Shown here piece by piece: positions 13,901 to 44,998 of a stretch of 64,000 nucleotides of DNA (the stretch's first letter is position 1; each line of letters starts with the position of its first letter). This DNA comes from a virus. The notes under the pieces are model-generated. The model searched no databases. It was not told where the DNA came from and was given only the letters and a program-made list of their open reading frames with translations. The stretch covers positions 1-64,000 of the IMG/VR virus record IMGVR_UViG_3300035698_020096. One strand, given 5' to 3'. Position numbers and translations under genes: made by a program.

Positions 13901-16900
13901 ATATTATCAATAGCACTTTGTAATCTATTACTTATATCCTTAGCTTTATCTTTATCCCCTTGTATATTTAAGTCAAGAGATTGAAACTCTCGTTTATATT
14001 TACCAACTAGGTTTAGTAAGTCCCCTCCTACTTGAGATAAGCCTGACTCGGTGGCTCTAATGGCTGATTGATATACCGCCTTTTCTTTGTTATATAAAGG
14101 AGAACTCTCATCTAGATTAGTCATTCCCACTCTTAGCTCAGAACTAATCTCTTCTCTTATAGGAGATATGCCGGTGTACCGTCTAATAGCTTCTTGAGCT
14201 AATACCATGTGCCCCGCAGGTACCATCCAACTAGCAGCAGGACTAGATACAGCCCCAGGGTATTTAGTTTTATGAGCCATCATTCCCTGTATTCTAGTAC
14301 CAGTAGAAGCTTCAGCCATAGTCCTAATGACCCCTGTTTCCCCAATAGCTACTCCATAGAATTGTCTAAGGGCTAGGACTTCTTCTTTATTCAAATCTAT
14401 ATCACTATCTCCACTAAGTTGAGCTCTAGTCATCTTCTCTCTTACTTGACTCATTAGAGTACCTGGAGTAAAAGCAGAAGCTAGAGCTAAGTTCTTAGCT
14501 ACTAATTCATCAACAAAGGAACCATAGGAATCCCCAATAGCTTTAAGTTCTTCTCCACCCATTAAGTAGCTATATCTTCTATCGTTAAAATCTAATTGAA
14601 TTTTCATACTCCCTTCAGCACTTTCATTAGATAACTGGTAAATCATAGGGAGAGAGAAGCTGAATCCTTTATATTTCAAGTTATCTAATACTGGAGCTAC
14701 TGAACCCATACCAAAAGGTTTATTAGGATCCATTTGATATTCTCTACCTATAGCCATCAATCTTTCATCTGATACCTTATCTATAAGTCCAGGTATATCT
14801 TGTATCTCAGTAGATAAACCCAACCCCCCTTCGGCTTGAGGCTTATAAGCTATCCCAAATATCTTTCTAATCCTATCTCCTTTAGAATCGGTAACACTCA
14901 CTTCCCCAGTAAAGGGGTCCCTATACAATTCTCCATAATTAGGACTAGCTATTAATAAATCATGAACAGTTCTTAGACTATCCATTCGTTGGTCTTTGTC
15001 AACGGCTACAGCTAATACATTTAAATGGGCTTCTATTACTTGCCTAGATAGTTCTCCATAGATACTATAGTCCTTCTCTATTTGAGTAAGCTGTTCCTTA
15101 TTAATAGCGGAATAGCCTGCATATAACCCTACAAACTTACTCTTATCTAATTGAGAGGCTAGACGTATATCGGTAAAATCATATATCTTTCTATCAGTAA
15201 ACCCTCGCTTAGCTAAGTCCATCTCTAAGCCCGTCATAGTACTACCTTCGGATACTACTGACATCATATTAGCTACTACCTTTCTAAGAGAAGCAATAGA
15301 GCCTGTTTCTTCAAAGCTAGTGACAATAGTAGCCATTGGTTTCATTAGGTGTTGAAACTCAAGAGAACCTGAATGTTTACTACCGAGGGATTCTTTAGAT
15401 TGAGAAGCCATTGGACCTATAAACATTCGGAGTACTGTTGACTTATGAGTATAACCTCTAACAATAGCTCTAGTTATTTCGAGATAATCAAGAGCTTCTT
15501 GCTCTTCTTGATTAAGATTATCCAAGGCTAACTTCTTCTCTCTTAAATCTCTAGCCATTTGAATCTTATCTAAATCAGCATCTCCCATAATAAAAGCTAG
15601 TTGCTGAATGATACGGTCGTTACTATAATCAATCTCAGTGGGTACTTCTATTCCTGCTGTTTGTGCTTTCAATTGTTCAACTAAATCAATAGATGCAGCT
15701 ATTAAAGTAGCCTCTCTTTCCCTTGAATCATCTATTCTAATAAAGTCTCTCTTAGTAACTCCTACTGAACCTTTATCTCCAATAGACTCTAGCAATCTAG
15801 TTCTAATAAATCCCTTCATATAATCCATATCTTCTTGATAACCTTTAAGAGCCCCAAGAACTTTAGTATCATCCAGTAGTTGAAGACTAGGGGTTTGTTG
15901 AGCATTAAATAAATCAGTAGACTCCTTAAAGACTGCTTCTCCAAATACTCTACCCAATTCAGTTCTTAACTCAAGAGTATCTATATATATATCAGAAGTA
16001 CTATCTAGTATTTGACTTAACTTACTTAAGTCTTGCTTAACTCCCAATCGTTCTAAATGTCCCCTTATCTCTTCATTCTTAGATACACCTGTAAGTACTG
16101 CACCTAACGCTTGATTCCTAAACCATTCTCCTAACTCTCCTTTCATTGCTGATTCAAATAGCTGAGTCTTTATCTGACTCCCTATTCCTTTATCACTAAT
16201 CCATGAATCTTCAAATCCCATCATTAGAGAAGCTATTAGTCCCTTACCTGTAATACCTCCCTGTTGCGTTTCTAAACTACCTATAAGGGGTTCAAGGTAC
16301 TTCTTATTACGAATAATAGTAGAACCATGAGAATAGAAATAGCTCTTGAGGTTAGAAGGACTGAATAAACCAAAGACTTGACCTACATCTATATCCCCAG
16401 TAGCCCCTGCTTTATTCCTATTTAATTGTTCAGTTACATAAGAGAAGAAGTCTGTCTTACTTCCTGGTACTTGATATAGCTCCTCTAGACCAGTAAATTT
16501 AAGTACAGCTTTAGGTAGTCCTCCAGTACCTTCAACTCTCTTACCTCCACCTACCATAATGGAACGTAAATATACCATTTCCCATAACAACTGGTTATTA
16601 TCAGCATTACCCATCAGTTGTTTAGAATCAAGTACATACTCGACACTATTCTCTGAGGCTCTATACCAGGCCTGTCTATCTAGTTTAGATACGTTAGGTA
16701 AATCATTAATAGTTCTAAAGTTATCGATAACTTCTGTGAGTGCCCCTACTTGGTCTCTAGAGTCAACTACTGATTTAGTAACATAATTACCTTCAGTATC
16801 TGAATAGGTATAGTATCTATCAAAACTATCTCCAAGAGTAGCCCTTACTAGCTCTAACTTAGCTTCTCCTGTAAGCTTATCCATACTTACTATTTCTTTA

Positions 16901-19900
16901 GGAATACCTCCCCCTTGCTTCATCATTTCCTCAGCAGAACCCCAAACTAATACTCTATTAGTATCAGAGTCAAAGGTAACTATATCTCCTCTATTTGCTA
17001 ACATTACCCCTTTATGGCTCCATTCCTCTGATAGTTTAGAAGACTTCTGTCTCTTCTCACTCTTATCTATAAAGCCACTCATAGTACCCATACGTCCTAT
17101 TACCTCAGCTTGAGACACCTTATCTAATCTCTTCCAGTCATAGCCTACAGACCTTAATTTAGATTTAACGAATTCTCTATCATCTGTACTAGAACCATAT
17201 AAAGGATTAGCCCAAGCGTAGTCACTATAGTCCCCAGTGAGTTGAACTAAAACTATAGGGTCAAATCCTTCCTTATTACCAGTAAAACCTTTAATACCCC
17301 CAGCCATAGAGTCAGCTAATTTAGCTCTAGTTAAAAGTAGCTTTCTAGCTATAGAAGTAGACCCTGGTAGAAACTCATTATCTAAGAATCCAAATTCATC
17401 CTTAAGTTCTTTCTTAGCTTCCTCAATTAGATTAGCTATTTCGCTATTAACAACTGTTCTAAAGCCTGCATCACTAACTACCGCTGTATTTAAATCAGTA
17501 CCTACAGTCGTCTCCACCCTACTCCACATAGTTCTAAGACTACCCATTAATTCTTCACTGTTTACAGATAGTCTTTCTAAGGAAGCCCTTTCAACTACTT
17601 TCTCAATAACTCTAGAAGGATTGTACATCCCTAGATTACTAGTACCCACTACATCCCTAAGTATTTCTACAGCTCGTTTAATTCCCCATGATTCCTTCTT
17701 AGCTAATTGAGACATTAGGTCTACTTTAATACCTGTAACTCTTTCATTAATTAGACCTGATACATCTCCTTTAGTAGTAAGACGATAAGATAGTTCTCTA
17801 TCTAACTCAAACATAGGTCTACCTCCCAGAACATTCTTTAAACGTTGAGGTATCTGTGAAGCTTTCTTTGCTACATTAAACGTATAGTTTATTGACTCAT
17901 TTACAGTCTCATCTTTAAATGGAGTAGCATCTATTAAATCTTTAAAGTCTTTATTTAATCCATTAGGTAAAGCTTCCCCAGATTGGATTCTATCTACTAG
18001 TTCATCCGTATTAGCTATACCCAACGTTCTTAAAGATGACGAATATTTATCATACAGCAGTTCACTTATATAAGTAACATATTGGTCTCTAGTGTTTATA
18101 TAACCCACCCCTGCAAATGAGGCCAGTTGCACTGAGCTTACATCTCCAGTAGGAGTTTTATTAATACCATACACACTAAGTCCAGTAGTTTCTTGACTAG
18201 CTGATATACCACTACCGTCTGCTACTCCTCTAATAGCCCCTTCAGTTCCCTTACCTGTAGTATTAGCAGGACCAAAGATATAAGATTGAGCTAGAGCATA
18301 TCTATAAAAAGCTTCACCTTTATTCAATTTATCTATAAATATTTGTTGATTATTATTAATACCGTATAAGGGATTTTTAAACCATGCTTGAGATGTTCCA
18401 TAGGTAGAAGCTCCAGATTGAGTAATAAAGGGTTCTAACATCCCGGCCTTTACTTCTTTAATATCTGACTTTAATTTAGTGGCATATAGAAAGTCTTTTC
18501 TACTCTCTAATATCCCTAATGCAATATCGGATTGGAAGGTACTTACACTTTCCAATCCCATGTATCTATCGAAGGTTTCTCTAATAGCGCCTACAGCATC
18601 TTTCTTAAGTGACTCAAGAGCCGATCTTCTTTCGCGACTAACTTTAGGGTCAGTTATCTCTCTATTAACATCTCTAATTAACTCAAGATGACTTAGTACT
18701 GAACGTCTAAGAGCTAAGTCAGTATCTCCATATATTTGCTCCTTAGTAAGCCCTCTATTAGCTAATCCTTCCCCTTTAGCTAACTTATCATATATACCCC
18801 CTCCAGTAAGTTCAAGAGCTCTTTTAGAAGTACCACTTACCCTCTCTCCTAAATGTTTAGTAGTAAAAGTGGATATAAGTTTAGATATTTCATAATCACT
18901 TAATGAATTATCTAATAGGAAAGTACCAGCACTTGAATCAGTACCTCCTGAAGCTATATGACCTCTAGATAGATATTCTAGGTAGCCTAATCCAGCAGTA
19001 GCTAATCTAGTAGTTTGAGCATCGTACTGGCTTTCCTTTAGAGCTTTCATATAAGCCATCGGCTCAGCTACTAAAGTTCTATAAGTAGTCTCTGCTGCTA
19101 ATGTACTAACTACATTTATTAACGAATCTACTGGACTTAATCTCAAAGCTTCTTTAGATTTAACTACTCGGGGGTTTAATTCATACTCCCCAGTTTCATC
19201 ATTACGAACAAAGGAACCTTCTCCATAAGGTATTCCCCCTATATCTGTGTCAGTATTATTAACAAAGAGAGAGTTACCTATTACTTTATTCTGGTCAATC
19301 AAATATACAAAGCCCTGATTAGTTCCCATCCCTCCTTTTAAACTAGTTAGTCTAAACTTAATAGGATTAAATCCAACATTAGTATCTTGGAATCCTCTAT
19401 ATCCAACCATATCCGCTGGATTAATAGTGAGTTCCAACGCTAGTAAACTTCCTCCTTGTCCATATATATTCTTAACTCCCAGTCCCCCTGTATCTAAACC
19501 CATATCCTTATTTAATTGTTTAACTCTAGCTGTTATTTCAGCTATACCCAGAGCATTAACTTTATTCTCCCAACTAGCTCTAGTTCCTTCAAGAGAAGTG
19601 TCAACATTACCTACAGTAGTTTGAGTCAATCTTCTCCATTCTCTTTCTCTATCCGTACCTTGCTGAGCATAGAAGTTCTCCAAATCTGCACCTAAATTCT
19701 CCTCTTCATTTCTATATAAGATTCCTTTAGATTTAGCATGCTCTCTCATCTCTCTAGCTAAGGCAATAACTCCTACTTCAGAACTAACAGCTTCCTTATC
19801 ATCTCGACTAAATGCCATTGATTCAGAACCAAAGTTAGAGCTTCCAGTAATACTAGCTATATGTCTATATGTATCTTCTCCAAGACCCATACCAGTTCTT

Positions 19901-22308
19901 TCAATAGCAAATACATTTTTAACGTGAGACATAGTTTCAGTAACACCGATAATGTTACCTCTAGTCATAGCAAGTAATTGCTTAACTGTTCTATCTGCTG
20001 CCTTACTAGCTACTGCTTTAGATTTAAACTTAGACCCTAAACCTAAACTATATTTCTCTTCTATGTTGCTAAGACTATCTCTAGAATTAACCCCGGTTTC
20101 ATCTAGTCCTAATACTTTGAGTAAACTATTTCTATTACCATGCTTACTAGTGAGTTCTTGAAGACTGCTATTATATTCGGTCTCCATTCTCAGAGAACCA
20201 ATCCTCCTATAATCTTCATTAGTAAAGTCAGATAAAGAGGGTCTTCCTTCTGTCCATCCTTTAGGTTTATATCTTCCATTTCCACTATCTACAGCAGCTT
20301 TACCTAATAGGTAATGAACCCTTTCTGTCATAGGCTCTAAGACTTTATCCCTATAGTTCCTAATATCAACAGAGATATAAGCTTGATTATTAATTAGTAA
20401 ATCAAATAGATTCTCTTGTATTTCATTTCTATATATAGACCTTCTATTTGATTCTCTTTTACCTGTTAGTTCATTAAGAGAAGTTTGCCGACTATTATCA
20501 GGTCCAAACTCCCCTCCAAAGTCTCCTCCCTTACCGTAGTACAAGTCATTGTCATATTGAAGTAACCATACTTGGTTTAGGTTCATATAGACTTCTACTC
20601 TTTTATCTGAACCCATCCCCCTCTTACCCTGAGCATAAGAAAGTATAGACCGTAAACCCTGACCTATGTCCCCCGCTAGTCCTACTTGGCCCCCAGTAAA
20701 AGCTTCACCCCCTGTTGCTCTTCTAATCCCTCCAATAGCTAATCCTCTAGTTTGGAGGAATAGATGAGTATCAACATATTCCTTAGCTTTTTCTTCCTCT
20801 ATAGAATCACTCTTTTTAGATAAACCTTTAGATTCAAGAGTACCTACATCTCTCATACTCATATAATCTCTAAGGTCAGCTCCAGTATCTCTATAGTTTT
20901 TATTTATAAGTCTTATCTTCTCAGTAATAGAAGCAGTACTATCAAATCCACTGGATACAGGGTTTAATATACTTCTCATTCGATTATGAAAGATAACTAT
21001 TTCTTCATAGTTAGACCCTGCTTGCACTACTGAGTTACCTACTGGGGAAGTTAAGTTAAACGAACCCAACATTGCATATCTTTCAGTGGTATATGCCTTA
21101 GGGTGATACATGCCTTCTGACATCATCTCCAAGGTAAAAGAGGGAAGAAGTTTAGCTATCTTACTATTTATATCTAAAGCCCTTTCTTCACTAGATATAG
21201 CAATCTTATTAGAAGCTGTAGCGCTTGCCTCTAAATCAAACTCTTTATCTAATATCTTCTTTTGAAGAATATATAGTCTTTCCATAACCACTATATTAGG
21301 CCCTAGAATCTGGTGTCCTACCATATTTCTTCTATCCCCTTCAGTAGGGCCAGCTAGTCTTAATTGAAACTTAAACTCACCTCTAGCTATACGCCCACTT
21401 TCCCTTTCTAATTTCTTAACTAGTACATCAGCTACCGCTTTATTCTGCAGTTGAAATAAATCAATAGTTAATTCTTTCTCAGCACTTTCAATAAAGGCTA
21501 CAGCTGAACGTATACCTGGTTTAGCTACATAATCTGTCTCTGTAAGTATCTGATTAGATACTTCTCTAACCCTCTCAGTTATATCGGTAAACTTCCCATA
21601 TTGTCTATTAAGATTAGAAGACTCTCTACTTCTTATTAATTCTTGATGATATTCAGATACACGTCTAGTAGCTCCTACTTCTTCGGTAACTAATACATTA
21701 TTCATTAACCAATTACCTGAAGCTATAGTTACTCTATCTCCACCCCATTGGTGTGAGTTATACCATCCCATTGGTTTAGTAACATATAACCCTCCATATA
21801 AAGATTTATTCCCTACTTGAGTCACATCATGTTTAAATAGATGTTGGTATGTTCCGGAAGAAACATAGCCTTCCCATTCTTCTCTTCTTCTATCCTGTTC
21901 TTTACTACTGAGAGTATCATCAAAGAAGCCTTTATCTAATCCAATATTAAAGTTACCTATAACTCTATTTATAACCTTAGTACCACTTAAGGTCAAGTCA
22001 AACACATCCTGAGAGAAAGAAGAAAATGCGTTCCTACCTAAAGCTCTAAGGACTTCAGTCTGAGGGTCTATATTACCTGTACTAACTGATTCAGTAGATA
22101 GCTTCTTCTGCCAACCCTTTCTATTTACTTCTCTCTTTTCACTAGTTAAACCTCTATATGAGCTTTGATATCCAACAATTAAATTACCAGATTCGTATGT
22201 ATCTGTTCTTTCTTTATTCCATGAAAGATGGAAGTTAACCGCACCTCTAAGAGCATCATCAACCCCCATATTTCTAAATGCTGAATCATAATTCTGTATC
22301 AATGCCAT
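7939..22308 (-). CDS. giant (4,789 aa) putative virion protein: two PLD-like nuclease domains, single-chain double-psi-beta-barrel RNA polymerase, hydrophobic C-terminus
   Basis: PLD-type motifs: HPK...GSFNL...NYE (H402) and HVK...GSSNF...SE (H795). Polymerase-type motifs: GGGKRVEGTGGLPK (K1923/K1933), FRSPP (R3470), GDFDGD (D3531-D3535), LGKTYN and DGIK. No Cys found. Confidence 0.85.
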   Translation of the reverse strand: MALIQNYDSAFRNMGVDDALRGAVNFHLSWNKERTDTYESGNLIVGYQSSYRGLTSEKREVNRKGWQKKLSTESVSTGNIDPQTEVLRALGRNAFSSFSQDVFDLTLSGTKVINRVIGNFNIGLDKGFFDDTLSSKEQDRRREEWEGYVSSGTYQHLFKHDVTQVGNKSLYGGLYVTKPMGWYNSHQWGGDRVTIASGNWLMNNVLVTEEVGATRRVSEYHQELIRSRESSNLNRQYGKFTDITERVREVSNQILTETDYVAKPGIRSAVAFIESAEKELTIDLFQLQNKAVADVLVKKLERESGRIARGEFKFQLRLAGPTEGDRRNMVGHQILGPNIVVMERLYILQKKILDKEFDLEASATASNKIAISSEERALDINSKIAKLLPSFTLEMMSEGMYHPKAYTTERYAMLGSFNLTSPVGNSVVQAGSNYEEIVIFHNRMRSILNPVSSGFDSTASITEKIRLINKNYRDTGADLRDYMSMRDVGTLESKGLSKKSDSIEEEKAKEYVDTHLFLQTRGLAIGGIRRATGGEAFTGGQVGLAGDIGQGLRSILSYAQGKRGMGSDKRVEVYMNLNQVWLLQYDNDLYYGKGGDFGGEFGPDNSRQTSLNELTGKRESNRRSIYRNEIQENLFDLLINNQAYISVDIRNYRDKVLEPMTERVHYLLGKAAVDSGNGRYKPKGWTEGRPSLSDFTNEDYRRIGSLRMETEYNSSLQELTSKHGNRNSLLKVLGLDETGVNSRDSLSNIEEKYSLGLGSKFKSKAVASKAADRTVKQLLAMTRGNIIGVTETMSHVKNVFAIERTGMGLGEDTYRHIASITGSSNFGSESMAFSRDDKEAVSSEVGVIALAREMREHAKSKGILYRNEEENLGADLENFYAQQGTDREREWRRLTQTTVGNVDTSLEGTRASWENKVNALGIAEITARVKQLNKDMGLDTGGLGVKNIYGQGGSLLALELTINPADMVGYRGFQDTNVGFNPIKFRLTSLKGGMGTNQGFVYLIDQNKVIGNSLFVNNTDTDIGGIPYGEGSFVRNDETGEYELNPRVVKSKEALRLSPVDSLINVVSTLAAETTYRTLVAEPMAYMKALKESQYDAQTTRLATAGLGYLEYLSRGHIASGGTDSSAGTFLLDNSLSDYEISKLISTFTTKHLGERVSGTSKRALELTGGGIYDKLAKGEGLANRGLTKEQIYGDTDLALRRSVLSHLELIRDVNREITDPKVSRERRSALESLKKDAVGAIRETFDRYMGLESVSTFQSDIALGILESRKDFLYATKLKSDIKEVKAGMLEPFITQSGASTYGTSQAWFKNPLYGINNNQQIFIDKLNKGEAFYRYALAQSYIFGPANTTGKGTEGAIRGVADGSGISASQETTGLSVYGINKTPTGDVSSVQLASFAGVGYINTRDQYVTYISELLYDKYSSSLRTLGIANTDELVDRIQSGEALPNGLNKDFKDLIDATPFKDETVNESINYTFNVAKKASQIPQRLKNVLGGRPMFELDRELSYRLTTKGDVSGLINERVTGIKVDLMSQLAKKESWGIKRAVEILRDVVGTSNLGMYNPSRVIEKVVERASLERLSVNSEELMGSLRTMWSRVETTVGTDLNTAVVSDAGFRTVVNSEIANLIEEAKKELKDEFGFLDNEFLPGSTSIARKLLLTRAKLADSMAGGIKGFTGNKEGFDPIVLVQLTGDYSDYAWANPLYGSSTDDREFVKSKLRSVGYDWKRLDKVSQAEVIGRMGTMSGFIDKSEKRQKSSKLSEEWSHKGVMLANRGDIVTFDSDTNRVLVWGSAEEMMKQGGGIPKEIVSMDKLTGEAKLELVRATLGDSFDRYYTYSDTEGNYVTKSVVDSRDQVGALTEVIDNFRTINDLPNVSKLDRQAWYRASENSVEYVLDSKQLMGNADNNQLLWEMVYLRSIMVGGGKRVEGTGGLPKAVLKFTGLEELYQVPGSKTDFFSYVTEQLNRNKAGATGDIDVGQVFGLFSPSNLKSYFYSHGSTIIRNKKYLEPLIGSLETQQGGITGKGLIASLMMGFEDSWISDKGIGSQIKTQLFESAMKGELGEWFRNQALGAVLTGVSKNEEIRGHLERLGVKQDLSKLSQILDSTSDIYIDTLELRTELGRVFGEAVFKESTDLFNAQQTPSLQLLDDTKVLGALKGYQEDMDYMKGFIRTRLLESIGDKGSVGVTKRDFIRIDDSREREATLIAASIDLVEQLKAQTAGIEVPTEIDYSNDRIIQQLAFIMGDADLDKIQMARDLREKKLALDNLNQEEQEALDYLEITRAIVRGYTHKSTVLRMFIGPMASQSKESLGSKHSGSLEFQHLMKPMATIVTSFEETGSIASLRKVVANMMSVVSEGSTMTGLEMDLAKRGFTDRKIYDFTDIRLASQLDKSKFVGLYAGYSAINKEQLTQIEKDYSIYGELSRQVIEAHLNVLAVAVDKDQRMDSLRTVHDLLIASPNYGELYRDPFTGEVSVTDSKGDRIRKIFGIAYKPQAEGGLGLSTEIQDIPGLIDKVSDERLMAIGREYQMDPNKPFGMGSVAPVLDNLKYKGFSFSLPMIYQLSNESAEGSMKIQLDFNDRRYSYLMGGEELKAIGDSYGSFVDELVAKNLALASAFTPGTLMSQVREKMTRAQLSGDSDIDLNKEEVLALRQFYGVAIGETGVIRTMAEASTGTRIQGMMAHKTKYPGAVSSPAASWMVPAGHMVLAQEAIRRYTGISPIREEISSELRVGMTNLDESSPLYNKEKAVYQSAIRATESGLSQVGGDLLNLVGKYKREFQSLDLNIQGDKDKAKDISNRLQSAIDNIGVADTSGDNFGKQLALLEIVKIDIALGDIAKNVEAKEIILLSKGYIDYLNKTRTTAFESIEAISNTRKAVTSIIKSGLYEDILARVNSLSLEKSKINDITELVKIAIEDGKGASVLATIIDEELPSLSPKAKARLNEEVYSRLNLNNELNFLQQQRKGLEGRLFLSGSKVSLTPEERRAIDTALGTGAFSKIKDGFSSLSKERENIRSLLSITEDYMVTRGPIDIEEFSRIVRGELPSLSGTTVTAIEERFTAFNQRLTFREQMDIRQNERKDIATRLKSSKGGVGLNQEERQGYVESLRIITDNIKELADKQKKLGSVDKLPTDIATLLLKEYTDLNEYNLNKLKNYFRGVVSDDKLLAYIKEITKQELIPSKVGTILLSDFNKAEEANYEILRQEFKGVISDANLDSFVKEAISKNIEGKDLLEYKKLLNQRVGVLKNSIKEYDLKLEGPSSEIKYKSKFSSFTYATEEEANQAIKAYQTSTINETLDKTLDKTIANKGLMEGSYKGRVKAFSFDNDYLKGLSSDGDRRDMFSFVLGEMSGGFTKVVTELESRDTNTFKISEEHKGITDSNRQDIKSLIKVIDTLQSGVTSKSISSSDVEAIDKLIGKKTSANAYSLLGTSKEEVEKAGAFSLEGKKGFNRAISLLEVSMNTLDITDSLEALSFRSPPVGGTEQQRMTVGLIQDIGLLNQYSQNLQGNKASFENSVRNKGLSLVAPISFLTMNLGDFDGDQYTTIFSQFMSAQRDIEKSNILIRKKERDLDRLEKTIGNTSEPDLVAKATDKIIKLRSDIEQERSKIVDNNSRLDIWKENLNSSDFTRATKKEVANFLGIRKEFLMSKEEGGFQKTSPSLDLIFTEIYFGRDLFGGMEGVIDGTNSIKSVLNNIFNENLDIAGHNTSLFELLSNQSNVNKLDQTLVASLESIVRNDRDRKNESTYMSLLMVDQEARRTVLDTVKESLNSYLIPLNEQGKGQEELDREVVMAHASSSFYARYRGLPGLQGVLAQGAGANMTLNAYDSMVKVMGEAGGIVLGKTYNTFIGTLYSDSPLLALNHVLKDDGTREVLRQGGFFDKPKEGVIKGGVDVHMTEDTFYSELDKSSQQSEGILSFIKSVNQLLRDGIKPKGGSGMLDDMKNFAVEYESLSSDPLAQQALVREKASMFGPSGSNVGMSAFMELSDLIGQRESLRKPGLNNEVRMDNSGELISPWGNDQFGDTESILRTKFGMGGDEFDRLSTELLKNYSKDRVSAFDVAALKTQRSLETLIIAYRYNTDTGAEEYEKGSQLGFMTNVKKGTLGLMEQQGIYNPALDEKANLQTYIDSKFSERTAEGSRNLYILEQMFGKDREDIKRNYLDISSKDIRDGRRPDMTMEALSMVEIIENTTQATRGMMGLAGEGFQRFTSLEGARQEAVSVIGGRSEREINPGMGADIWTSLMNLAGSNKLSSHAIPVIWEAFGSSEVLSSMYQSGADHIEGLLPSLLSGVIVTGEGDNRQMSFATKGGRNVDQKEEENMRLMIHRIISEGKDIEVEVGEGSDRVKKNLTKYITDKLETTATVAKGKALVEMMNKLYGPQADVESYLNGSIFVEGIVNRKTLIEQERVKARDELALQGLDINNKANKEQINRVANERVNSYTSQLQGKYESAMDEFMFMSQKERRKVNNNRMPQEINANPGFDYMNVLKAESNANKLSGIQDFIIPAALTLIGSAVLGGRLDREALGDVVGSSLIAASMSKGSILSSMLSQRIGLPSNLEGTKKGGIAKGAISAGIKGIGSSFKLNLALQESEGDLSKAMAISAGRELGFALGAMVLAPAIEKGVTNSFFYMSHMMKGQRELFEKTKIGKLSKEDKLMYMLGSTKGAIDSDSYVGTKGTALTVSGAILSGVLGMMMEGLTGHLVAGMHDTGRVNDFAVIDQALDALNNSRARDQSISAERESSPDVFNEQGEAVYAEDISPLDAELFHLAVDTEWMAIDQLDLQVTSEGNYELMIT

Positions 22309-34600: not shown

Positions 34601-37600
34601 ATGTCAGCACCCCGTATTAACTTTCAAGAATTAAATGAGGGCTATTCCCCTATTCGTCCAAATGTGAATAATAGGATTGGAATATTAGCTCCTTTCTCTA
34701 AAGGCCCAGCTAATCAATTAACGTTTATATCTGGATATTCTGATTTCTCTGACCGATATGGTTCAGATAACTCAATAGGTTCTACTGCATTTCAAGCAGC
34801 ATGGGACCAGAAAGCTACTGAGTTTGGATTACTTCGAGTGTTAGGTAGAGCTAGACCTGCATCAGGTCGAATTAACTTTGGAGGTTATACCAGTAAACCT
34901 AATAGTCTAGTTCTTCTAATGAGCTTTATAGGAGAAGCTCTACCGCAATCAGATAGAATCCTCACCTCAAGCATTTTCACTAGTGGTAACTTTAGTAGCA
35001 CTACTACAGGCCGCTTCTGGTTCTTAGTAGATAGTATCGATGATGATGGTTTCATTAAACTTAAATACATCTTTATTCCTCAAGGTATTGAAAACTATAT
35101 AAACTGGTATCCAGAATATAGAGAACCTCAGGATTTAACTATAGACCCTACATTTCCATTAAATGGTATTGGTAATAATCTACTTAATGAAACCTCCGAT
35201 ATCTCTAGTATTAGCTCTTCAATTTTAAAGATTGAAGGAGCTGAACCTATGACCTTCGTTGATGGGTGTTTAGGTTTAGGTGGAACGGGAGAAGTATGTA
35301 CTCTAGGTATGGTTGAAGGTTGGAAGGTAACTATCGAAGCTGGACAGATGAGATGGGTATGGCATGTAGACAATTCTGGTACTAACTATCGTTTAAATCA
35401 ACCAGAGTCAGGTTATATAGGAACTCTACCTGTTATTATCCCTGGAACAGAGGGTAATTCTAGTTTCAATACAGCTATTGATAGTGCAGTACTTACTGAT
35501 ACTAGAAGTGGAGAAATGGTTTCCTTCGAAGGAGTACATGCTTCTAATCCTAGGAGTGGCGCTATTAACCCTTCAGTAATGCCTGTATATGACTATGTAA
35601 TTCTACATAAGACTGATAAAGGTATTCCTGTCACTATTGATAAAGGAGTATTTCTTAGCTTTGGTACTATGTCTCAAGTAGATGATATTAGTCTTCAACC
35701 AGGAGATATGTGGACAGTTAAGGTAGCTCACTTTGATTATGAGATTCCCTTATATGTAGATGCTTCCCCTAATCAAGTAGTAACTAGCATTATCGAGAAG
35801 ATTCAGGGAGTTAATCCTATTGGTATGGTAGAGCGCAATCAAGCGGATAATGGTATTATTTTCTCTCTTGATGAAAACTCTCTTACTGGTTCAGTAGGTA
35901 ATAACTTTAGCTATCATGTTGAGTTAACTGAACCAGATGGGGAAGTAGTAACTGAAGGTAACTTTTATAGTGGTGAAAGATATATACAGGTTCCTATTAG
36001 ATATGCTACTTACATTCAAGAAGGAGCTGAATTAAGAATCATTGATACTCCTGGTATATATGGAGTAGTTAATATATCTAATCCCTTTGACCCCGCATCT
36101 CCTACTCAATCACCTAATAAATCTCTTCTTCCTACCATCACTAGAGTTTTAAGAGTAGAAGCTCCTATTACTGGAGGAGGTCTAGCTACTATTTGGTTGG
36201 ATAAAGATGTAGTAGCTGACTTTGATTCTATAGCTATCTTTCACTTCATGAATCCAACTGGATTAAACATGACCCATTATACTTACTACCAAGCTAACTT
36301 TTTGCAAGGTGGTGAAGATGGGCCTAGAAGAGCTGAAAGGGATTTCTATAGTCTAGATGGTATTCCTCTACTTAAACTAGTAGCTACTAGTGAAGGAGCT
36401 TGGGCTAATAACTTAAAGTTAAGCGTTTATCCTATTGATAATAAACGAATTCAGGTTAGTATTACTGATTTGAATAAGGATAATTACAACCCCCCGATTA
36501 GAGACGAAATTCATATATTCTCTTTTGAAGATACTGATGAGCAAGGTTTTATAACTAGACTTAACCCTTCTAACTTTATAAGGGGAATCTTTCTGCCTAA
36601 GTATGCTAACCCTAACTATAACGTTGGGATGTTGCGTAAGAGCCCTATGCGTCTAGCTCCTCCGGATAATACAGTAGTAGACTCAGAGGATGCAGCACAT
36701 CCAGAGAACTTTGGACCTCGTATTCTTAAAGACTTTACCTTAGAAGGAGGTTACGATGGCCCTCCTATTCAAGATGAAGATTATATTAAAGCTCTGGACC
36801 AAGTAAGGAATCAACCTGTACATATCCTTATTGCCCCAGGCCAATACAGGTCTACCGTAGTTAAGTCTAGACTATTAGCCCAAGCTGAGAATGCTAATGA
36901 ACTAGAAGGATTACGAATAACCTTAATTAATGCAAGACCTGGATTAACCCCCGAAGCAGCTATGGCTGAAACTATTGGATTTGATTCGGATAAAGGAGTA
37001 ATGGTGGCTGGATGGTCTACATATGCCGGTAAGCAAGGAGCCCCTAGATTTGGACTATCCCCTGATACTCTACTTGCTGGTAAACTATCTGGTATTCCTT
37101 TCCATGTAAGCCCTGCTGCTCGTACTACTAGTGGTCCTATCTTTGGTATTGCTGAAGTAGATACTCAACCCTATACCTCTAGAGCTCAATTAAACCTTTA
37201 TCACAATGCACGATTAGAAGCAGTACATATTGACCCTGCTACTAACTCCTTTAACTTCCTTAATGGGAGAAGCTTAAGTTCTAATCAACAATGGGACCGT
37301 ATTAGCTTCAGACGTACCTTTAACGTTGTAAGGATGGATGTAGCTCAGAACTTACAGCAATATAAGAGTGAACCTAATACCGCTGCTCTAAGAACTCGTA
37401 TAGCTAGTTCTATTGATGCCTACTTAAGCACCTTAAAGCGTAACGGAAGTATTAGTGCATTTCAAGGTGCTGAAGTTGCTAGTCCTAATCCTGCCTCGGG
37501 TCTAGCAACTATTAGATTCGGATTAGCACCAGTATATGCTTTAGATTACATAGATGTGTATCTAATTCGTACTGATGATGGAACCATTACTAGACCAGAT

Positions 37601-37603
37601 TAA
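34601..37603 (+). CDS. contractile tail sheath protein (1,000 aa, with insertions)
   Basis: N-terminal PRINFQE...GILAPFSKGP...FSDRYG; EGAWANNLK; LEGGYDG; C-terminal ISFRRTF...KSEPNT...APVYALDYI. Confidence 0.9.
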   Translation: MSAPRINFQELNEGYSPIRPNVNNRIGILAPFSKGPANQLTFISGYSDFSDRYGSDNSIGSTAFQAAWDQKATEFGLLRVLGRARPASGRINFGGYTSKPNSLVLLMSFIGEALPQSDRILTSSIFTSGNFSSTTTGRFWFLVDSIDDDGFIKLKYIFIPQGIENYINWYPEYREPQDLTIDPTFPLNGIGNNLLNETSDISSISSSILKIEGAEPMTFVDGCLGLGGTGEVCTLGMVEGWKVTIEAGQMRWVWHVDNSGTNYRLNQPESGYIGTLPVIIPGTEGNSSFNTAIDSAVLTDTRSGEMVSFEGVHASNPRSGAINPSVMPVYDYVILHKTDKGIPVTIDKGVFLSFGTMSQVDDISLQPGDMWTVKVAHFDYEIPLYVDASPNQVVTSIIEKIQGVNPIGMVERNQADNGIIFSLDENSLTGSVGNNFSYHVELTEPDGEVVTEGNFYSGERYIQVPIRYATYIQEGAELRIIDTPGIYGVVNISNPFDPASPTQSPNKSLLPTITRVLRVEAPITGGGLATIWLDKDVVADFDSIAIFHFMNPTGLNMTHYTYYQANFLQGGEDGPRRAERDFYSLDGIPLLKLVATSEGAWANNLKLSVYPIDNKRIQVSITDLNKDNYNPPIRDEIHIFSFEDTDEQGFITRLNPSNFIRGIFLPKYANPNYNVGMLRKSPMRLAPPDNTVVDSEDAAHPENFGPRILKDFTLEGGYDGPPIQDEDYIKALDQVRNQPVHILIAPGQYRSTVVKSRLLAQAENANELEGLRITLINARPGLTPEAAMAETIGFDSDKGVMVAGWSTYAGKQGAPRFGLSPDTLLAGKLSGIPFHVSPAARTTSGPIFGIAEVDTQPYTSRAQLNLYHNARLEAVHIDPATNSFNFLNGRSLSSNQQWDRISFRRTFNVVRMDVAQNLQQYKSEPNTAALRTRIASSIDAYLSTLKRNGSISAFQGAEVASPNPASGLATIRFGLAPVYALDYIDVYLIRTDDGTITRPD

Positions 37604-41007: not shown

Positions 41008-43074
41008 ATGTCTTATTCTGATGGAACAGCTACTCTTAGAAGACAATGTACTGCTAATGAAGATAATAGAAAATCCTTTCTTGCTACTCAATCTAATTTT
41101 AAGATTACTCAAGGAGTAGTAGAAGGTCTAGTTGGTATGGAGAGTCCTGAGCATATAGGTATGGTGTATAACATCAGACTTATAGATACAGGACATTTAG
41201 TTAGATGTAGAAGATTAGTTAACTCTGCTTCATTTGATGGAGTAGGAGAATATAATCCTTTAGAAGAAGGAGACCCAGTAGTAGTAGCTTTTAAAGAAGG
41301 TATGCTTCAAGATGGGATTATCCTTGGTTGTTTCTACACAGAAGGTACATATAAAGAGTTCTATATAGAAGGTCAAGGACTTAAACCAAGAGAAGTAAAG
41401 TCTAATTCTGTAAGGAATGTAGAGTTTAACCAACCTTCTATTCACCCTAATCGCGTGGCTCAACCCGATGCCTGGGTACATATTATTGGAGGCAAGGTAG
41501 GGCCATATAGAGACCCTGCTCTTACTGATGGTAGTACTAGTATGAAAGCTAATAGAAGACCTCCCCCAGCTTCTATTCAAATAAAGAATAAATTAGGAGA
41601 TGTAGGTCAATGGGCTAAAGGAGATATCATCTTCTATTCAGATAGTAATATCATTCTTTTCTCTAGTCAAGAAGGGAAGTCTAAATGTAAAAGATTAAGA
41701 GAACTGGCTGAGTATTACCAACAAATGGTAGAGGAAATGGAGGTTTTTATAGGAGTACAAATTGAAGATGAAATAAAACCAGCAGTATTTGAAGATGAAG
41801 CTGTTAAGGTTAGAAGCCTGGTTAATGCACATGAAGCTTCTGATAAATTTAATGATGAAGTTATAAATCCCGAATCTTCTGAAACTAATACTGAAAACCC
41901 TGAATCTTCTGACTCAACTGACTATAACTATACAGATGACGATAGACGTAATAGAAGATATATTAATGGAGAACCTAATATCGACTATATGATGTATGCC
42001 CCTTTAGTCGAATATCATCTTCCTCAATTAAAAGCAATGGCAGCTAAATGTAAAGAGTTAGCTATTACATGTAAAGAAGAGGCTATCAATCATGCAGGGG
42101 TTACTAATAGTAGACTAGAGGCTAGTCAAATAGTACAAGACGCTTGTTCTGCTTTATCCTCAGGGGGTCAACTAGATGATGAAAAGATAGAAGCATTGGC
42201 TGAAGGTCGTATATGTTTAAGTGGTGATGTAAGACATTACCCCTTTACTAAATGGAAGTTAGATAAATCTCAAGGTGTTGAAATAGAAGACTTAGCTTCT
42301 GACTCCGAGATTAAAGATGTATTAGTACATAAAGCTCTACTAGAAGCTTTTAAAAAGATGAGGGATGCTGCTCTATCTGAATCAGGGGGAGATATAGATT
42401 TAGCTATCGCTAGTGGGTTTAGAGACAAGGAATATTTAGATAAATATGGTTTAGACCCTAGAGATTGTGAATTATTAGGAGGAGAGTTCCTACCTAAACC
42501 TGAACAATCTTTTGAGACAGGAGCTATAACTAATACGGGTAAAACAGGTTTAGTAGTTATAGACCCTGGACATGGTGCGCCCGACCCAGGTGCAGTAGGT
42601 AATGGTATTGAAGAGGCTACTTATGTATTAGAGATAGCTAAATCTTTAGTTTCTACTCTTAACGGAGCAGGTATTAAAACTCTATTAACCAGAGATATTG
42701 ATGCTCAAGTACCTTCTCTTAGAGGAGCTGTAGAGTTAGCCACTAGTAATAATGCCAATCTCTTTGTTAGTATTCATTGTAATGCTTTAGCTGGAGCTAT
42801 TGCTACTGGATTTGAGGTATTTAGATATCATTCAGTTAGTGATACATTTGCAAATAATACAGTTAAAACTCTAGCTGCAAATCTTCCTACTCTTCCAAAT
42901 AGAGGAGTTAAGTCTGGTAACTTCACCGTAATTAAAGCTTCCTCCGCTATCCCTTCTATTCTTGTTGAATTAGGTTTTATAAGTAATCCTAAAGAAGCAG
43001 AGTTTATGAAACAAGCCGATACTAAGTCTAAATATGTAACCGCACTAGCTCAAGCTATTATTAATACTTTATAG
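41008..43074 (+). CDS. baseplate spike (gp5/gpV OB fold) + N-half of VanY/M15B peptidase + amidase_3
   Basis: Spike: PLEEGDPVVVAF...IILGCFY. VanY half: AFKKMRDAA...IASGFR. Amidase_3: VVIDPGHG, E, SIHCN, LVELGF. Confidence 0.8.
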   Translation: MSYSDGTATLRRQCTANEDNRKSFLATQSNFKITQGVVEGLVGMESPEHIGMVYNIRLIDTGHLVRCRRLVNSASFDGVGEYNPLEEGDPVVVAFKEGMLQDGIILGCFYTEGTYKEFYIEGQGLKPREVKSNSVRNVEFNQPSIHPNRVAQPDAWVHIIGGKVGPYRDPALTDGSTSMKANRRPPPASIQIKNKLGDVGQWAKGDIIFYSDSNIILFSSQEGKSKCKRLRELAEYYQQMVEEMEVFIGVQIEDEIKPAVFEDEAVKVRSLVNAHEASDKFNDEVINPESSETNTENPESSDSTDYNYTDDDRRNRRYINGEPNIDYMMYAPLVEYHLPQLKAMAAKCKELAITCKEEAINHAGVTNSRLEASQIVQDACSALSSGGQLDDEKIEALAEGRICLSGDVRHYPFTKWKLDKSQGVEIEDLASDSEIKDVLVHKALLEAFKKMRDAALSESGGDIDLAIASGFRDKEYLDKYGLDPRDCELLGGEFLPKPEQSFETGAITNTGKTGLVVIDPGHGAPDPGAVGNGIEEATYVLEIAKSLVSTLNGAGIKTLLTRDIDAQVPSLRGAVELATSNNANLFVSIHCNALAGAIATGFEVFRYHSVSDTFANNTVKTLAANLPTLPNRGVKSGNFTVIKASSAIPSILVELGFISNPKEAEFMKQADTKSKYVTALAQAIINTL

Positions 43075-43078
43075 ATAT

Positions 43079-44998
43079 ATGTCAGATAAGTCGAATAGAT
43101 TAAAATCAGTAGCTCCAGTAGAGAATAGTGAACATTTAACAGGATTCTCAGTAGATGTAGTAGATAAGAAAGACCCTAAGACCTTTGATTTAGATGGTAA
43201 TTATAAAGCTAAAGCTTGGGAATGGGTTGAAGCTAATTGTGGAAAGTATGGCTTCGAGGTATCTTTCCCTAAAGGTAATAAGCAAGGACTTAATTATGAA
43301 CCCTGGCATCTTAGATATATAGGACCTGAAGTACCCGCTGAATTACAATTAGTATTTGCTTACGCTAAATCTGGTGGTAATGCGGATGAAGCTACATTAG
43401 ATAAGATATGTAAAGAGTCTCCTAAGACTGAATCTATAGAACATACTCAAGATGATATTAAATCTAGAACTGATTTAGACTTAGATAGAATTGTTAAGAC
43501 CCATAGTATAGAAGCTCTTACTGTTATTACAGGGAAAGGTACCCTAAATAGCAAAAAGGCAGCTAACTACGCTTTTAACGCTGATTCAGCTATAAAGCTA
43601 CATATAGCCCATGCTGTTTATCAACACGTTAGTTCGTTAAACATTTCTATAGATACCAATATTACTGCTAGTCCTAATGTACTTGCGGAAAATGAACCTG
43701 AATACCCCTCGGGTAAATCCTTTTCTATTAAGTATTTAATTAATAAAATGTTAGAAGTAAGCTCTAATACAGCTACTAATATGTTAATTCAGTACATAGG
43801 TGGAATTTCTCTTGCTCGCAAAAAAGTAAACACCTTAGGTTATTCATTAACTCTGATTAAGGATTATATATCTCTGCCAGGTAAGGTGGTAGGGGATAAC
43901 CCTGATGTGACTAATACCTCTTCTACGTTTGATATGGCTAAGGCTATATTTCAATTACTTAAGTTGAAACACAGTTTACAGTTAGATGTTTTAAACATAA
44001 TTGTTAATTCTCTTAGCAAAGCAGAAGTACCTAAAGGTATGCGGAATATAAAATTTAATAAGATTGGATATAATTCTAGAGTCAATGTCAATGTAGCTGT
44101 GTATCAAAATAGTAATGGTTACTTTATAATAGCTGCGGCTAACCTTACAGAATCCAGAGATTTTGAATTAACTAAGGTAATGTTAGCTACTAACGAGGTA
44201 ACTCAAGCTATAGACAATTTAGAACTCGAAGGTATAGATTTTACTAAAGCTCCTGGAACTGCTTCTAGTGCTGCTTCTAGTGCTGCTGCTCCTCGTTCTA
44301 CTACAGCTAAATCTCTCCCTGTATTAATGTATCACTCTATTGGTAATGGAGAAATAGATCCGAAATATGCTAGATACGAAGTTACCCCTGAAAGGTTTAG
44401 AGGGCATATGCAGCATCTAAAGTCTTTAGGATATACAGCAGTATTAGCTAATAATATTATCTCAGGGGACCTACCAGATAAACCTATCGTTATTACTTTT
44501 GATGATGGATGTTTAAATAATCTAACTAATGCAGTCCCAATAATGAGAGAATTCGGAATGAGGGGACTATTCTTTATTACTACTGATTGGTTAGGTAAAA
44601 CACATCCCGAATATAAAGTCCCTATTATGAATAGTAATCAAGTAGCTCAGTTAGTAAATGGAGGGCACGAAGTGGGCTCACATAGTTTAAGTCATCCTAG
44701 ACTATTGGATATATCCGAAGCCCAACTTACTAAAGAGTTAGTTGATTCAAAGAATATATTATCCTATATAGTTGGAGCTAATATTAAATCTTTCTCCTAC
44801 CCATTTGGTAGAACTAACTCTTCCATAGTTCAAGCTACAGCTAAATATTATCAATTAGCTTATATGGCATTTCTGACTTCTGATAACCCAGGTAATAGTA
44901 AACATATGATAAACAGAGTAGAAATTGATGGTAAAGTAAGTGATTATGAATTAGAAATAAAGGCCCAGCATGAACATAACTTCCTAAAGCTTACTTAG
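43079..44998 (+). CDS. C-half of VanY/M15B peptidase + class A beta-lactamase-like serine hydrolase + NodB polysaccharide deacetylase
   Basis: VanY half: SEHLTG..D, YEPWHLRY. Serine hydrolase: SAIK, SSN, KIG. Deacetylase: VLMYH, TFDDG, GSHSLSH, SYPFG. Confidence 0.85.
   Translation: MSDKSNRLKSVAPVENSEHLTGFSVDVVDKKDPKTFDLDGNYKAKAWEWVEANCGKYGFEVSFPKGNKQGLNYEPWHLRYIGPEVPAELQLVFAYAKSGGNADEATLDKICKESPKTESIEHTQDDIKSRTDLDLDRIVKTHSIEALTVITGKGTLNSKKAANYAFNADSAIKLHIAHAVYQHVSSLNISIDTNITASPNVLAENEPEYPSGKSFSIKYLINKMLEVSSNTATNMLIQYIGGISLARKKVNTLGYSLTLIKDYISLPGKVVGDNPDVTNTSSTFDMAKAIFQLLKLKHSLQLDVLNIIVNSLSKAEVPKGMRNIKFNKIGYNSRVNVNVAVYQNSNGYFIIAAANLTESRDFELTKVMLATNEVTQAIDNLELEGIDFTKAPGTASSAASSAAAPRSTTAKSLPVLMYHSIGNGEIDPKYARYEVTPERFRGHMQHLKSLGYTAVLANNIISGDLPDKPIVITFDDGCLNNLTNAVPIMREFGMRGLFFITTDWLGKTHPEYKVPIMNSNQVAQLVNGGHEVGSHSLSHPRLLDISEAQLTKELVDSKNILSYIVGANIKSFSYPFGRTNSSIVQATAKYYQLAYMAFLTSDNPGNSKHMINRVEIDGKVSDYELEIKAQHEHNFLKLT

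Follow-up and report, generated by a model that had tools for sequence, protein, structure and literature searches.

In a cyanophage-like myovirus, a VanY/M15B zinc peptidase domain is encoded in two pieces at the tail tip: the N-terminal part belongs to the spike gene, the C-terminal part opens the next gene, and an intact amidase_3 domain is inserted between them. The window, that is, the whole stretch of 64,000 nucleotides analyzed, covers positions 1 to 64,000 of the IMG/VR virus record IMGVR_UViG_3300035698_020096, and all features described here are on its plus strand. The division of the peptidase over two genes around the amidase, proposed in the initial annotation, is borne out by Pfam matches, open reading frames (ORFs) and unsplit relatives, and the coordinates and sequence statements given there all hold. 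Given that both halves have remained intact over a long time, they probably snap together again, holding a second enzyme protein on the spike. We therefore favor the reading that this is a gene in pieces, the products of which would reassemble, so that the second protein is tethered to the spike and the active site of the peptidase is made whole.

The first of the two genes (gene 1, protein P0001; ORF 41008..43074, 688 aa) follows the sheath and tube genes in the gene order and encodes the central spike/baseplate-hub protein, for which domain searches yielded a weak match to the Phage_base_V OB domain and a match to the baseplate protein family phrog_30576. The OB/hub domain (aa 1-250, 41008..41757) is the best-conserved portion of the spike family, being common to 54 representative proteins and 74-92% identical between gene 1 and P0003, P0004 and P0005. 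The C-terminal region of gene 1 consists of the VanY N-part, a linker and the amidase_3 domain, and ends with a TAG stop codon (43072-43074). The stop codon and a 4-nt spacer, ATAT (43075-43078), together occupy 43072..43078 and are followed, with a +1 shift in frame, by gene 2 (P0002; 43079..44998, 639 aa; ORF and Pfam), which starts with an ATG at 43079 and encodes, in this order, the VanY C-part, a beta-lactamase2/PBP-like serine hydrolase (aa 162-353, 43562..44137; PF13354, E 6e-19) and a polysaccharide (NodB) deacetylase (aa 464-589, 44468..44845; PF01522, E 4e-25). Among the relatives examined, the NodB domain is present only in the gene 2 lineage and P0011, and is missing from P0012, P0005 and L002. 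The region is crowded with other wall enzymes, namely amidase_2, M23, the PBP-like domain and NodB.

The N-part of the VanY/LdcB domain (gene 1 aa 400-494, 42205..42489) is collinear with the intact VanY domains of P0005 and L002 and comprises N-terminal beta-strands, helix alpha1, a strand ending in SGFR (AGT GGG TTT AGA at 42412-42423) and a short helix ending in CELLGGEF, with the secondary structure taken from the model of a relative's intact module. The initial annotation correctly placed this half on the spike, but started it about 40 residues too late: the N-terminal beta-strands begin near aa 400 (nt 42205), so that the N-part spans about 95 aa rather than about 37. Against the Pfam VanY profile (PF02557) alone, the N-part scores below the cut-off (13.8-15 bits, E 0.025-0.05, profile positions 3-37); its score is 21.0 bits (E 1.6e-7) with a profile of the N-half made from 83 VanY domains, all of them bacterial. 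This score and the collinear alignment with P0005 and L002 show that the N-part is real despite the weak Pfam match. The C-part (gene 2 aa 7-83, 43097..43327) is recognized by the Pfam VanY profile without difficulty (aa 5-82, profile positions 52-131/132, E 2e-18, 66.9 bits with a cut-off of 25), and the two parts jointly span profile positions 3-37 and 52-131. The C-part is followed by helices (gene 2 aa 84-125, 43328..43453) that are kept in split and unsplit relatives alike, with 90%, 71% and 60% identity to P0011, P0012 and P0005, respectively, and correspond to helices 162-186 in the relative's model.

The earlier statement that the catalytic residues are all retained proved correct: each of the seven residues that are invariant over 90 VanY domains is present, and they are shared out over both genes, with the R of SGxR on gene 1 and S, H, D, E, W and H on gene 2, in the motifs NSEHLTGFSVD and YEPWH. 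Roles were transferred from LdcB: the active-site Arg of gene 1 corresponds to column R61, whereas gene 2 carries the Zn ligands, the H and D of the SEH...D motif and the H of EPWH (columns H89, D96 and H152), and the catalytic Glu (E149), all in invariant columns. In LdcB, Arg120 pairs with the substrate carboxylate near the Zn ion held by His153, Asp160 and His207, and both subdomains are made of non-contiguous segments (PMC4087270). What distinguishes the present domain is the loss of contiguity on one chain: a TAG, a 4-nt spacer, a frame change and about 195 inserted residues intervene between the halves, and we accordingly class it as a split variant and not as an ordinary VanY/M15B member. 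The intact module of an unsplit relative is modeled confidently (pLDDT 87.5) with the VanYB/LdcB fold, and the break maps to a confidently modeled short helix/turn rather than to an obviously floppy loop.

The insert opens with a linker (gene 1 aa 495-515, 42490..42552) that aligns to a gap in P0005 and L002 and is 92% identical to P0003 but only 11-21% identical to the others. The linker leads into a complete amidase_3 domain (N-acetylmuramoyl-L-alanine amidase; aa 516-688, 42553..43071), for which the match to PF01520 extends over aa 516-686 and the full profile (1-174 of 174; E about 1e-42). It is the single amidase_3 domain in the 80-kb record, and the closest one found is the C-terminal domain of another spike-family protein, P0048 (40% identity). 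The insert consists of the linker and amidase_3 only, and ORF, Pfam and Rfam analysis detected no endonuclease gene, further ORF or RNA element in it. The C-termini of the spike family shuffle modules, with amidase_3, amidase_2, DPBB and beta-lactamase-only forms represented.

The view that a single ancestral VanY/M15B domain was divided by the inserted amidase is confirmed by four relatives, P0005, P0045, P0046 (the L002 ORF 7953-10787) and P0052, that carry an unsplit VanY-beta-lactamase module on the same spike. In P0005 (853 aa, 59% identical), the VanY profile is matched from 3 to 130 on one chain. The unsplit proteins align collinearly over the break, with gene 1 first and gene 2 next, and lack the linker, the amidase_3, the stop and the new start; MSDKSN, the N-terminus of gene 2 (aa 1-6, 43079..43096), likewise has no counterpart in them. 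The intact modules and their collinearity over the break imply that the unsplit form is ancestral. A covalently attached beta-lactamase-like domain is found on the spikes of P0005, P0045, P0046 and P0052 and of the Microcoleus phage My-WqHQDG. In L002, the downstream genes (157 and 432 aa) match the amidase_2 and M23 genes of the window in size and order.

The split recurs in homologues, as the initial annotation had suggested checking. P0003 ends like gene 1, with the same amidase_3, and P0011, the gene 2 orthologue, has an identical start, including MSDKSN, and the same architecture; both proteins come from JGI, each with 7358 bp listed as the longest contig. In a third lineage, the VanY N-part of the P0004 cluster (8 members) leads into a DPBB_1 (DPBB/RlpA) domain in place of the amidase, and the P0012 cluster (12 members) opens with the VanY C-part, preceded in P0012 itself by MADSQF; the cluster members P0190 and P0197 are both listed with a 45909-bp contig. 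Searches of DNA collections recovered only the distant, unsplit L002, and contigs of the P0003/P0011 and P0004/P0012 clusters were absent from them. A maximum-likelihood tree of the OB domain has the topology (P0005,((P0001,P0003),(P0004,P0196))), in which the split clade is supported at 88/86 and is sister to the unsplit P0005, and every outgroup is unsplit. As these values are moderate, the split may instead go back to two independent insertions at the same site.

Several lines of protein-level evidence, namely regional identities, half-profile scores and invariant residues, indicate that both halves have been kept under constraint since the split. With profiles derived from bacteria only, the N-half scores 17-21 bits in split proteins compared to 13.8 in the unsplit P0005 and 26-29 in P0045 and P0046; the C-half scores 89-93 bits in split proteins versus 80-92 in unsplit ones, with 88.9 for gene 2 and 91.5 for P0005. 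Decay of one half in relatives, raised earlier as an outcome that would speak against reassembly, is seen neither in these scores nor in the identities. All three split lineages retain all seven invariant residues, and within the split clade the halves are 60-66% identical (83-87% in the closer pair), whereas the neighboring variable linker has fallen to 26%. Between P0002 and P0011, the C-half is 87% identical and is the best-conserved portion of gene 2; the adjacent beta-lactamase-like domain is 48% identical. The rate of the C-half relative to the OB domain is 1.45-1.6 between split lineages versus 1.1-1.3 between split and unsplit ones, and mild relaxation of the C-half is thus conceivable. 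Within the P0012 cluster, the C-half is no less variable than the remainder (9 of 76 sites vary, versus 29 of 381 columns overall).

The slightly elevated rate of the C-half speaks for an alternative under which the halves co-fold and tether the second protein but the peptidase is dead, the cutting of the wall having passed to the amidase or DPBB domain of the insert. The gain of a lytic domain exactly where the old one was cut, in a region already rich in wall enzymes, also points this way. We nevertheless consider loss of activity unlikely, although it fares best among the alternatives, because the seven invariant residues kept in all three split lineages include the Arg and the Glu, which act on the substrate rather than stabilize the fold, and the half-profile scores match those of unsplit relatives. 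Alternatively, the halves could be relics that do not associate at all, such that the N-part serves as a spacer between spike and amidase, and the C-part is the leftover N-terminus of a free, non-virion enzyme. The shuffling of modules that is common at the spike C-termini of this family is compatible with such an outcome, but the persistence of the halves next to the diverged linker, the undiminished profile scores and the status of the C-half as the best-conserved portion of gene 2 are not what relics would be expected to show; moreover, a fragment of about 77 aa that lacks one core strand and the helix beside it would hardly persist without a use. We rank this second alternative slightly below the first and regard it, too, as improbable.

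Far less probable than either is recoding, that is, a +1 frameshift or ribosomal bypass at the TAG that would produce one chain with the amidase_3 inside a VanY loop. The frame of gene 2 is open from 43049, 23 nt 5' of the TAG, and thus overlaps the frame of gene 1 at this point; TTA, the codon that precedes the stop of gene 1, reappears in the frame of gene 2 at 43100, just before KSVAP; and the last residue of P0004, Q, is the same as residue 5 of P0012. The latter two are weak coincidences, given that the genome is AT-rich and TTA is a common codon in it. The junction sequence contains no slippery heptamer, its predicted RNA fold is unremarkable (z -0.70), it matches no Rfam family, and no sign of an intron was found. 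Furthermore, gene 2 has its own ATG at 43079, the first possible position in its frame, the spacing of the two genes resembles that of other tightly packed genes in the same Shine-Dalgarno-poor operon, and two genes are called in every assembly. Since the longest of the 28 proteins that match P0005 (E <= 1e-30 among 1.8 billion representatives) has 969 aa, no fused, amidase-bearing form, which would need about 1330 aa, is represented among them. An assembly or sequencing indel near 43072-43079, a concern raised in the initial annotation, is suggested by nothing but the short 4-nt spacer and is refuted by independent assemblies, in which the same stop and start boundaries recur: a phage with 80% and 66% identity has the same C- and N-termini on a contig of its own, the third lineage is represented by variants from several sources, about 8 and 12 in number, and the amidase would remain inserted in VanY even without the stop.

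Reassembly of the halves in trans, with docking of the second protein, fits both the conservation of the halves and the covalent beta-lactamase-like domain on the spikes of relatives, and suggests the following scenario. The ancestral spike ended, on one chain, in an intact VanY/LdcB-type zinc peptidase and, behind it, a beta-lactamase/PBP-like domain. Before the small split clade diversified, a foreign 3' gene end, made up of a linker and a lytic domain with a stop codon of its own, would have recombined into the loop region that leads from the SGxR strand/helix to the SxH strand; the donor was probably another allele of the spike-gene family ending in amidase_3 (compare P0048). The upstream half would have acquired the new lytic domain as its C-terminus, amidase_3 in gene 1 and a DPBB/RlpA-like domain in the sister lineage, and the downstream half would have become the start of a separate gene, with its ATG 4 nt past the stop. 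The two fragments may then co-fold into one VanY domain, to which the spike would contribute about 95 aa with one core-sheet strand, helices and the active-site Arg, and the second protein about 80 aa with the catalytic Glu and the three Zn ligands. The active site of the peptidase would be completed in this way, and the PBP-like and deacetylase cargo would be re-attached to the trimeric spike non-covalently, the attachment being covalent in relatives. From the sequences, we infer that the fragments associate physically, that the virion contains the second protein and that the rebuilt enzyme is active. Activation only on assembly, proposed in the initial annotation, is speculative as a selected regulatory feature: the data are explained equally well by a neutral origin, with an insertion that could persist thanks to complementation between the fragments. 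More tentatively, the VanY halves, one displayed by the spike and the other by a cargo protein with further wall-modifying enzymes, might constitute a modular split-protein fastener that builds the tail-tip enzyme complex, with the active site existing only in the assembled particle; the modularity is suggested by the exchange of the lytic domain at the break between lineages (amidase_3 versus DPBB).

To our knowledge, few enzymes have an active site that nature has distributed over two genes with no splicing involved. In the present case, a small zinc peptidase of a single domain was cut such that the substrate-binding Arg is parted from the metal ligands, and the cut has outlasted substantial divergence and a change of the domain inserted. 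Should the halves reassemble, a catalytic fold can double as a non-covalent connector in virion assembly, which would explain how a lytic module can be added to a crowded spike gene while the downstream cargo is kept, and engineers of split enzymes would have a natural break point in the LAS/VanY fold that evolution has already tested. If the fastener interpretation is true, it would represent a hitherto undescribed principle of virion assembly and show how nature tethers proteins by means of a split enzyme. If the halves do not reassemble, the strong retention of both needs another explanation.

Compared to the known VanY/LdcB enzymes (MEROPS M15B, LAS superfamily; PDB 5ZHF, 4OX3, 4MPH and 4OX5), the fold and motifs are the same, but the domain is distributed over two genes and two polypeptides, one of which has the Arg and the other the Zn ligands, and is part of a phage tail spike, whereas the known enzymes are bacterial periplasmic or membrane proteins. 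In the T4 gp5 spike-lysozyme, a central tail spike/hub with an OB domain similarly bears wall-degrading domains for entry, and the peptidoglycan hydrolases of spikes and tails known to us have whole catalytic domains on a single chain. The spike family described here resembles these hydrolases in shuffling C-terminal lytic modules but, unlike gp5-type spikes, has one catalytic domain divided between the spike and a separate protein. PlyC is a multi-subunit endolysin, that is, a wall hydrolase of more than one polypeptide, and in both PlyC and LysIME-EF1 the catalytic domains are each intact on one chain, the extra subunits being binding domains. Both are lysis enzymes and not virion parts, in contrast to the tail spike. 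LysIME-EF1 is likewise a multi-subunit endolysin made of more than one polypeptide (PMC7098653). A close parallel is the ribonucleotide reductase of the Aeromonas phage Aeh1, the best-studied phage example of a divided active site. Aeh1 NrdA is split by the mobE homing endonuclease gene, and its fragments reassemble non-covalently into an active enzyme with a restored active site, a process that involves splicing of neither RNA nor protein (PMC3045599). In both cases, a phage enzyme gene was cut by inserted DNA and both fragments were retained; unlike in Aeh1, the insert here is an in-frame lytic domain on the upstream fragment, with its own stop and no endonuclease. Reassembly has been demonstrated for Aeh1 NrdA; for the split VanY domain we infer it, and the proposed benefit includes the tethering of enzymatic cargo to the virion.

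The spike gene (41008-43074, plus strand; 688 aa) ends in a TAG codon at 43072-43074, which is directly followed by the spacer ATAT and then, in the +1 frame, by the ATG at 43079 that opens the gene for the multi-enzyme protein (43079-44998, plus strand; 639 aa). Pfam detects in the spike protein a full amidase_3 (aa 516-686) and, weakly, a phage-baseplate OB domain, and in the multi-enzyme protein, in this order, VanY (aa 5-82), Beta-lactamase2 and polysaccharide deacetylase domains; the VanY match spans profile positions 52-131/132 only. The initial annotation placed the N-half of the VanY domain on the spike gene, with the SGFR motif at 42412-42423, a position that is exact. Against the Pfam VanY profile alone, the N-half is marginal (E 0.025-0.05, profile 3-37), and the decisive case for it comes from unsplit relatives. 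The spike P0005 (853 aa, 59% identical to the window spike) is one unbroken chain with a complete VanY domain (profile 3-130) followed by a beta-lactamase-like domain, and its alignment is collinear with the spike protein as far as ...C(E/D) and then with the multi-enzyme protein from ...LK.VAP..SEH on. The same pattern is found in P0045, P0052 and the 944-aa ORF (P0046) of the metagenome locus L002, where the two genes after the spike ORF (157 and 432 aa) match the amidase_2 and M23 genes of the window in size and order. Furthermore, an N-half profile built from 83 bacterial VanY domains only recognizes the spike protein with 21.0 bits (E 1.6e-7), compared with 13.8 bits for the unsplit P0005, and all seven residues that are invariant in 90 VanY domains (R of SGxR, S and H of SxH, D, and E, W and H of ExWH) are present, R on the spike and the other six on the multi-enzyme protein. 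The split is confirmed; the N-part does, however, begin near aa 400, with N-terminal beta-strands preceding the helix that had been taken as its start.

The remaining domains of the multi-enzyme protein differ in their distribution. The NodB-type polysaccharide deacetylase (44468-44845, aa 464-589) is shared with the ortholog P0011 and is missing in P0012, P0005 and L002, an addition specific to the lineage. The beta-lactamase2-like domain (43562-44137) retains the SxxK motif (SAIK), S..K being found also in P0011, P0012 and L002; this motif, together with a weak Peptidase_S11 match in P0011, suggests that the domain is a DD-peptidase of the PBP type and not a beta-lactamase.

To locate the break within the fold, we modelled the intact VanY module of an unsplit relative (L002:9240-9836) with a 90-sequence alignment. 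The model (pLDDT 87.5) has its best structural matches in VanYB (5ZHF), LdcB (4OX3, 4MPH) and VanXY enzymes; in sequence, the LdcB LD-carboxypeptidases are the closest enzymes of solved structure. The chain is broken after the short helix that follows the SGxR strand, immediately before the ..VAP..SEH segment. In LdcB, the zinc ligands are His153, Asp160 and His207, the nucleophilic water is straddled by Glu204 and Arg120, the latter forming a salt bridge to the substrate carboxylate, and both subdomains are formed by non-contiguous segments that are joined by six crossing loops (PMC4087270). Given this architecture and the position of the break, the spike carries one core-sheet strand, a helix that flanks the sheet, a portion of the helical subdomain and the arginine; the other strands lie on the multi-enzyme protein, together with the glutamate and all three metal ligands. 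Neither piece alone looks like a self-sufficient enzyme. Complementation of the C-half in cis was considered and rejected, there being no N-half-like segment in the multi-enzyme protein or its orthologs.

The initial annotation called for homologs to be checked for the split, and it recurs in two sets of relatives. P0003 (80% identical to the window spike) ends in the same amidase_3 with the same last residues, and P0011 (66% identical to the multi-enzyme protein) starts with the same residues and has an identical set of three domains; both are JGI sequences, and the longest contig listed for each is 7358 bp. In the P0004 cluster (8 variants), the VanY N-part is followed by DPBB_1 (RlpA-like), with no amidase, and in the P0012 cluster (12 variants) the C-part lies at the start of a separate 379-aa protein; a 45909-bp contig is listed for members of both clusters. 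From these matching contig sizes we infer that the two genes of each pair are adjacent. Among 1.8 billion representative proteins searched, the N-half without the C-half was found only in the split-lineage clusters. Scans of viral and genome contig collections yielded no relatives, and a metagenome scan recovered, besides the distant unsplit L002, two fragments only and no split relatives. When the conserved OB domain is analysed by maximum likelihood, the split lineages group together in the tree (88/86 support) as the sister of the unsplit P0005, with the unsplit P0045 and P0046 outside the split clade. The simplest history is a single split, after which one inserted lytic domain was exchanged for another; a pair of insertions at one and the same VanY loop is a possible alternative. 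Separately, an unrelated VanY ORF of bacterial type, P0134 (90 aa; ENA, singleton on a 2090-bp contig), begins (MKVSAPAGHSEH...) at the structural position where the multi-enzyme protein begins; it may represent another, independent split of this loop, but a gene that is broken or an incorrectly called start would give the same picture.

By alignment with the unsplit relatives, the insert consists of a linker, the amidase_3, the stop codon, 4 nt and a new six-residue N-terminus. An ORF and Rfam survey of the insert revealed no endonuclease, intron or other RNA family, and an intron or ribozyme at the break was rejected, with nothing relevant in Rfam. The amidase is not a local duplication of the phage's own lysin, to which it shows no similarity, and the 80-kb record contains no second amidase_3. 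The closest amidase_3 found is the C-terminal one of the spike-family protein P0048 (40% identity, same end point). The C-termini of this family (54 representative clusters) are highly varied: amidase_3 alone in P0048; amidase_2, VanY and a beta-lactamase-like domain in P0052; DPBB in P0004; and, in Microcoleus phage My-WqHQDG (L005:3902-5863), a beta-lactamase-like domain joined directly to the spike, with no VanY. C-terminal wall-enzyme modules are freely shuffled in the spike family. The VanY-coding region probably acquired, by recombination, the 3' end of another spike allele; the stop codon brought in by the insert would then be the natural stop of that allele.

The possibility that one half is decaying in relatives is contradicted by the identities and the half-profile scores. 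Between the window proteins and P0003/P0011, identity is 83% for the N-half and 87% for the C-half, against 48% for the adjacent beta-lactamase-like domain; across the whole split clade, the values are 60% and 66%, against 26% for the nearby variable linker. With bacteria-only half-profiles, C-halves score 89-93 bits in split and 80-92 bits in unsplit proteins, and N-halves 17-21 and 14-29 bits, respectively. By these measures, the VanY halves are not decaying. When scaled to the OB domain, C-half distances give split-split ratios of 1.45-1.6 and split-unsplit ratios of 1.1-1.3, so that mild relaxation of the C-half in the split lineages is possible; the N-half ratios show no trend, and internal variation in the P0004 and P0012 clusters is sparse.

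All unsplit relatives carry the beta-lactamase/PBP-like domain as a covalent part of the spike. To go on acting at the tail tip in the split lineages, the domain would need another tether, for which the complementary VanY halves are the obvious candidate. The strong conservation of the halves, including residues that act on the substrate and not in folding, suggests that the rebuilt domain is still an enzyme. Reassembly in trans, as proposed in the initial annotation, is the best-supported mechanistic reading of these sequences, and we consider it fairly probable that the halves form an active, spike-tethering domain; the evolutionary part of the interpretation, namely, division of an ancestral VanY by insertion, is solid. 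Docking of the halves without catalysis would provide the same tether and is unlikely, given the conserved substrate-binding residues. Slightly less likely still, the halves are unassociated relics, a reading that sits poorly with the identities and profile scores. Recoding that joins the two ORFs is very improbable: there is no slippery site at the junction, the junction RNA folds no better than shuffled sequence (z -0.70), the ATG of the multi-enzyme gene is at the first possible position, the intergenic spacing is typical of this Shine-Dalgarno-poor operon, and the longest of the 28 proteins that match P0005 at E <= 1e-30 has 969 aa, whereas the fused form needs ~1330 aa. The last sense codon of the spike gene, TTA, before the TAG, recurs 28 nt downstream in the frame of the multi-enzyme gene, just before ...KSVAP (43069-43102), and the last residue of P0004, Q, is residue 5 of P0012; these recurrences bear a surface likeness to the take-off and landing codons of translational bypass and are given no weight. 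No RNA structure supports such an event, and TTA is a very frequent codon in this genome. An artefact, such as the sequencing error at 43072-43079 that had been raised initially, can practically be dismissed: the same ends and starts are found in independent assemblies, and the split is conserved.

The source record is an IMG/VR virus of 80 kb with an estimated completeness of 47%. Its tail sheath (34601-37603) shares 45% identity with the sheath of Microcoleus phage My-WqHQDG and 40% with those of the Microcystis phages Ma-LMM01 and MaMV-DC; these values make it most likely that the phage is a myovirus of the freshwater cyanophage type, some 160-180 kb in size. The Shine-Dalgarno motif is absent from most genes of the phage, which fits a host of the cyanobacterial-phage type and removes the missing ribosome-binding site as an objection to the multi-enzyme gene. 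The split pair belongs to the tail operon, downstream of the sheath gene and upstream of the amidase_2, M23 and baseplate genes; upstream of this operon, the opposite strand contains a single 4789-aa ORF (7939-22308, minus strand).

The initial observation is, in sum, confirmed and extended. The domain resembles VanY/LdcB (M15B) in fold and motifs but departs from the single contiguous chain that is implicit in this family, and our searches of the open-access literature turned up no split VanY/LAS enzyme. In multi-subunit endolysins, such as LysIME-EF1 and PlyC, each catalytic domain appears to reside undivided on a single chain. Mechanistically, nrdA of phage Aeh1 is the nearest precedent: the mobE endonuclease gene splits it into fragments, and its two products reassemble non-covalently into an active reductase (PMC3045599). 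In contrast to that case, no endonuclease is involved here, the inserted sequence encodes a functional lytic domain as an in-frame fusion to the upstream fragment, and the proposed reassembly would also attach cargo to the virion.
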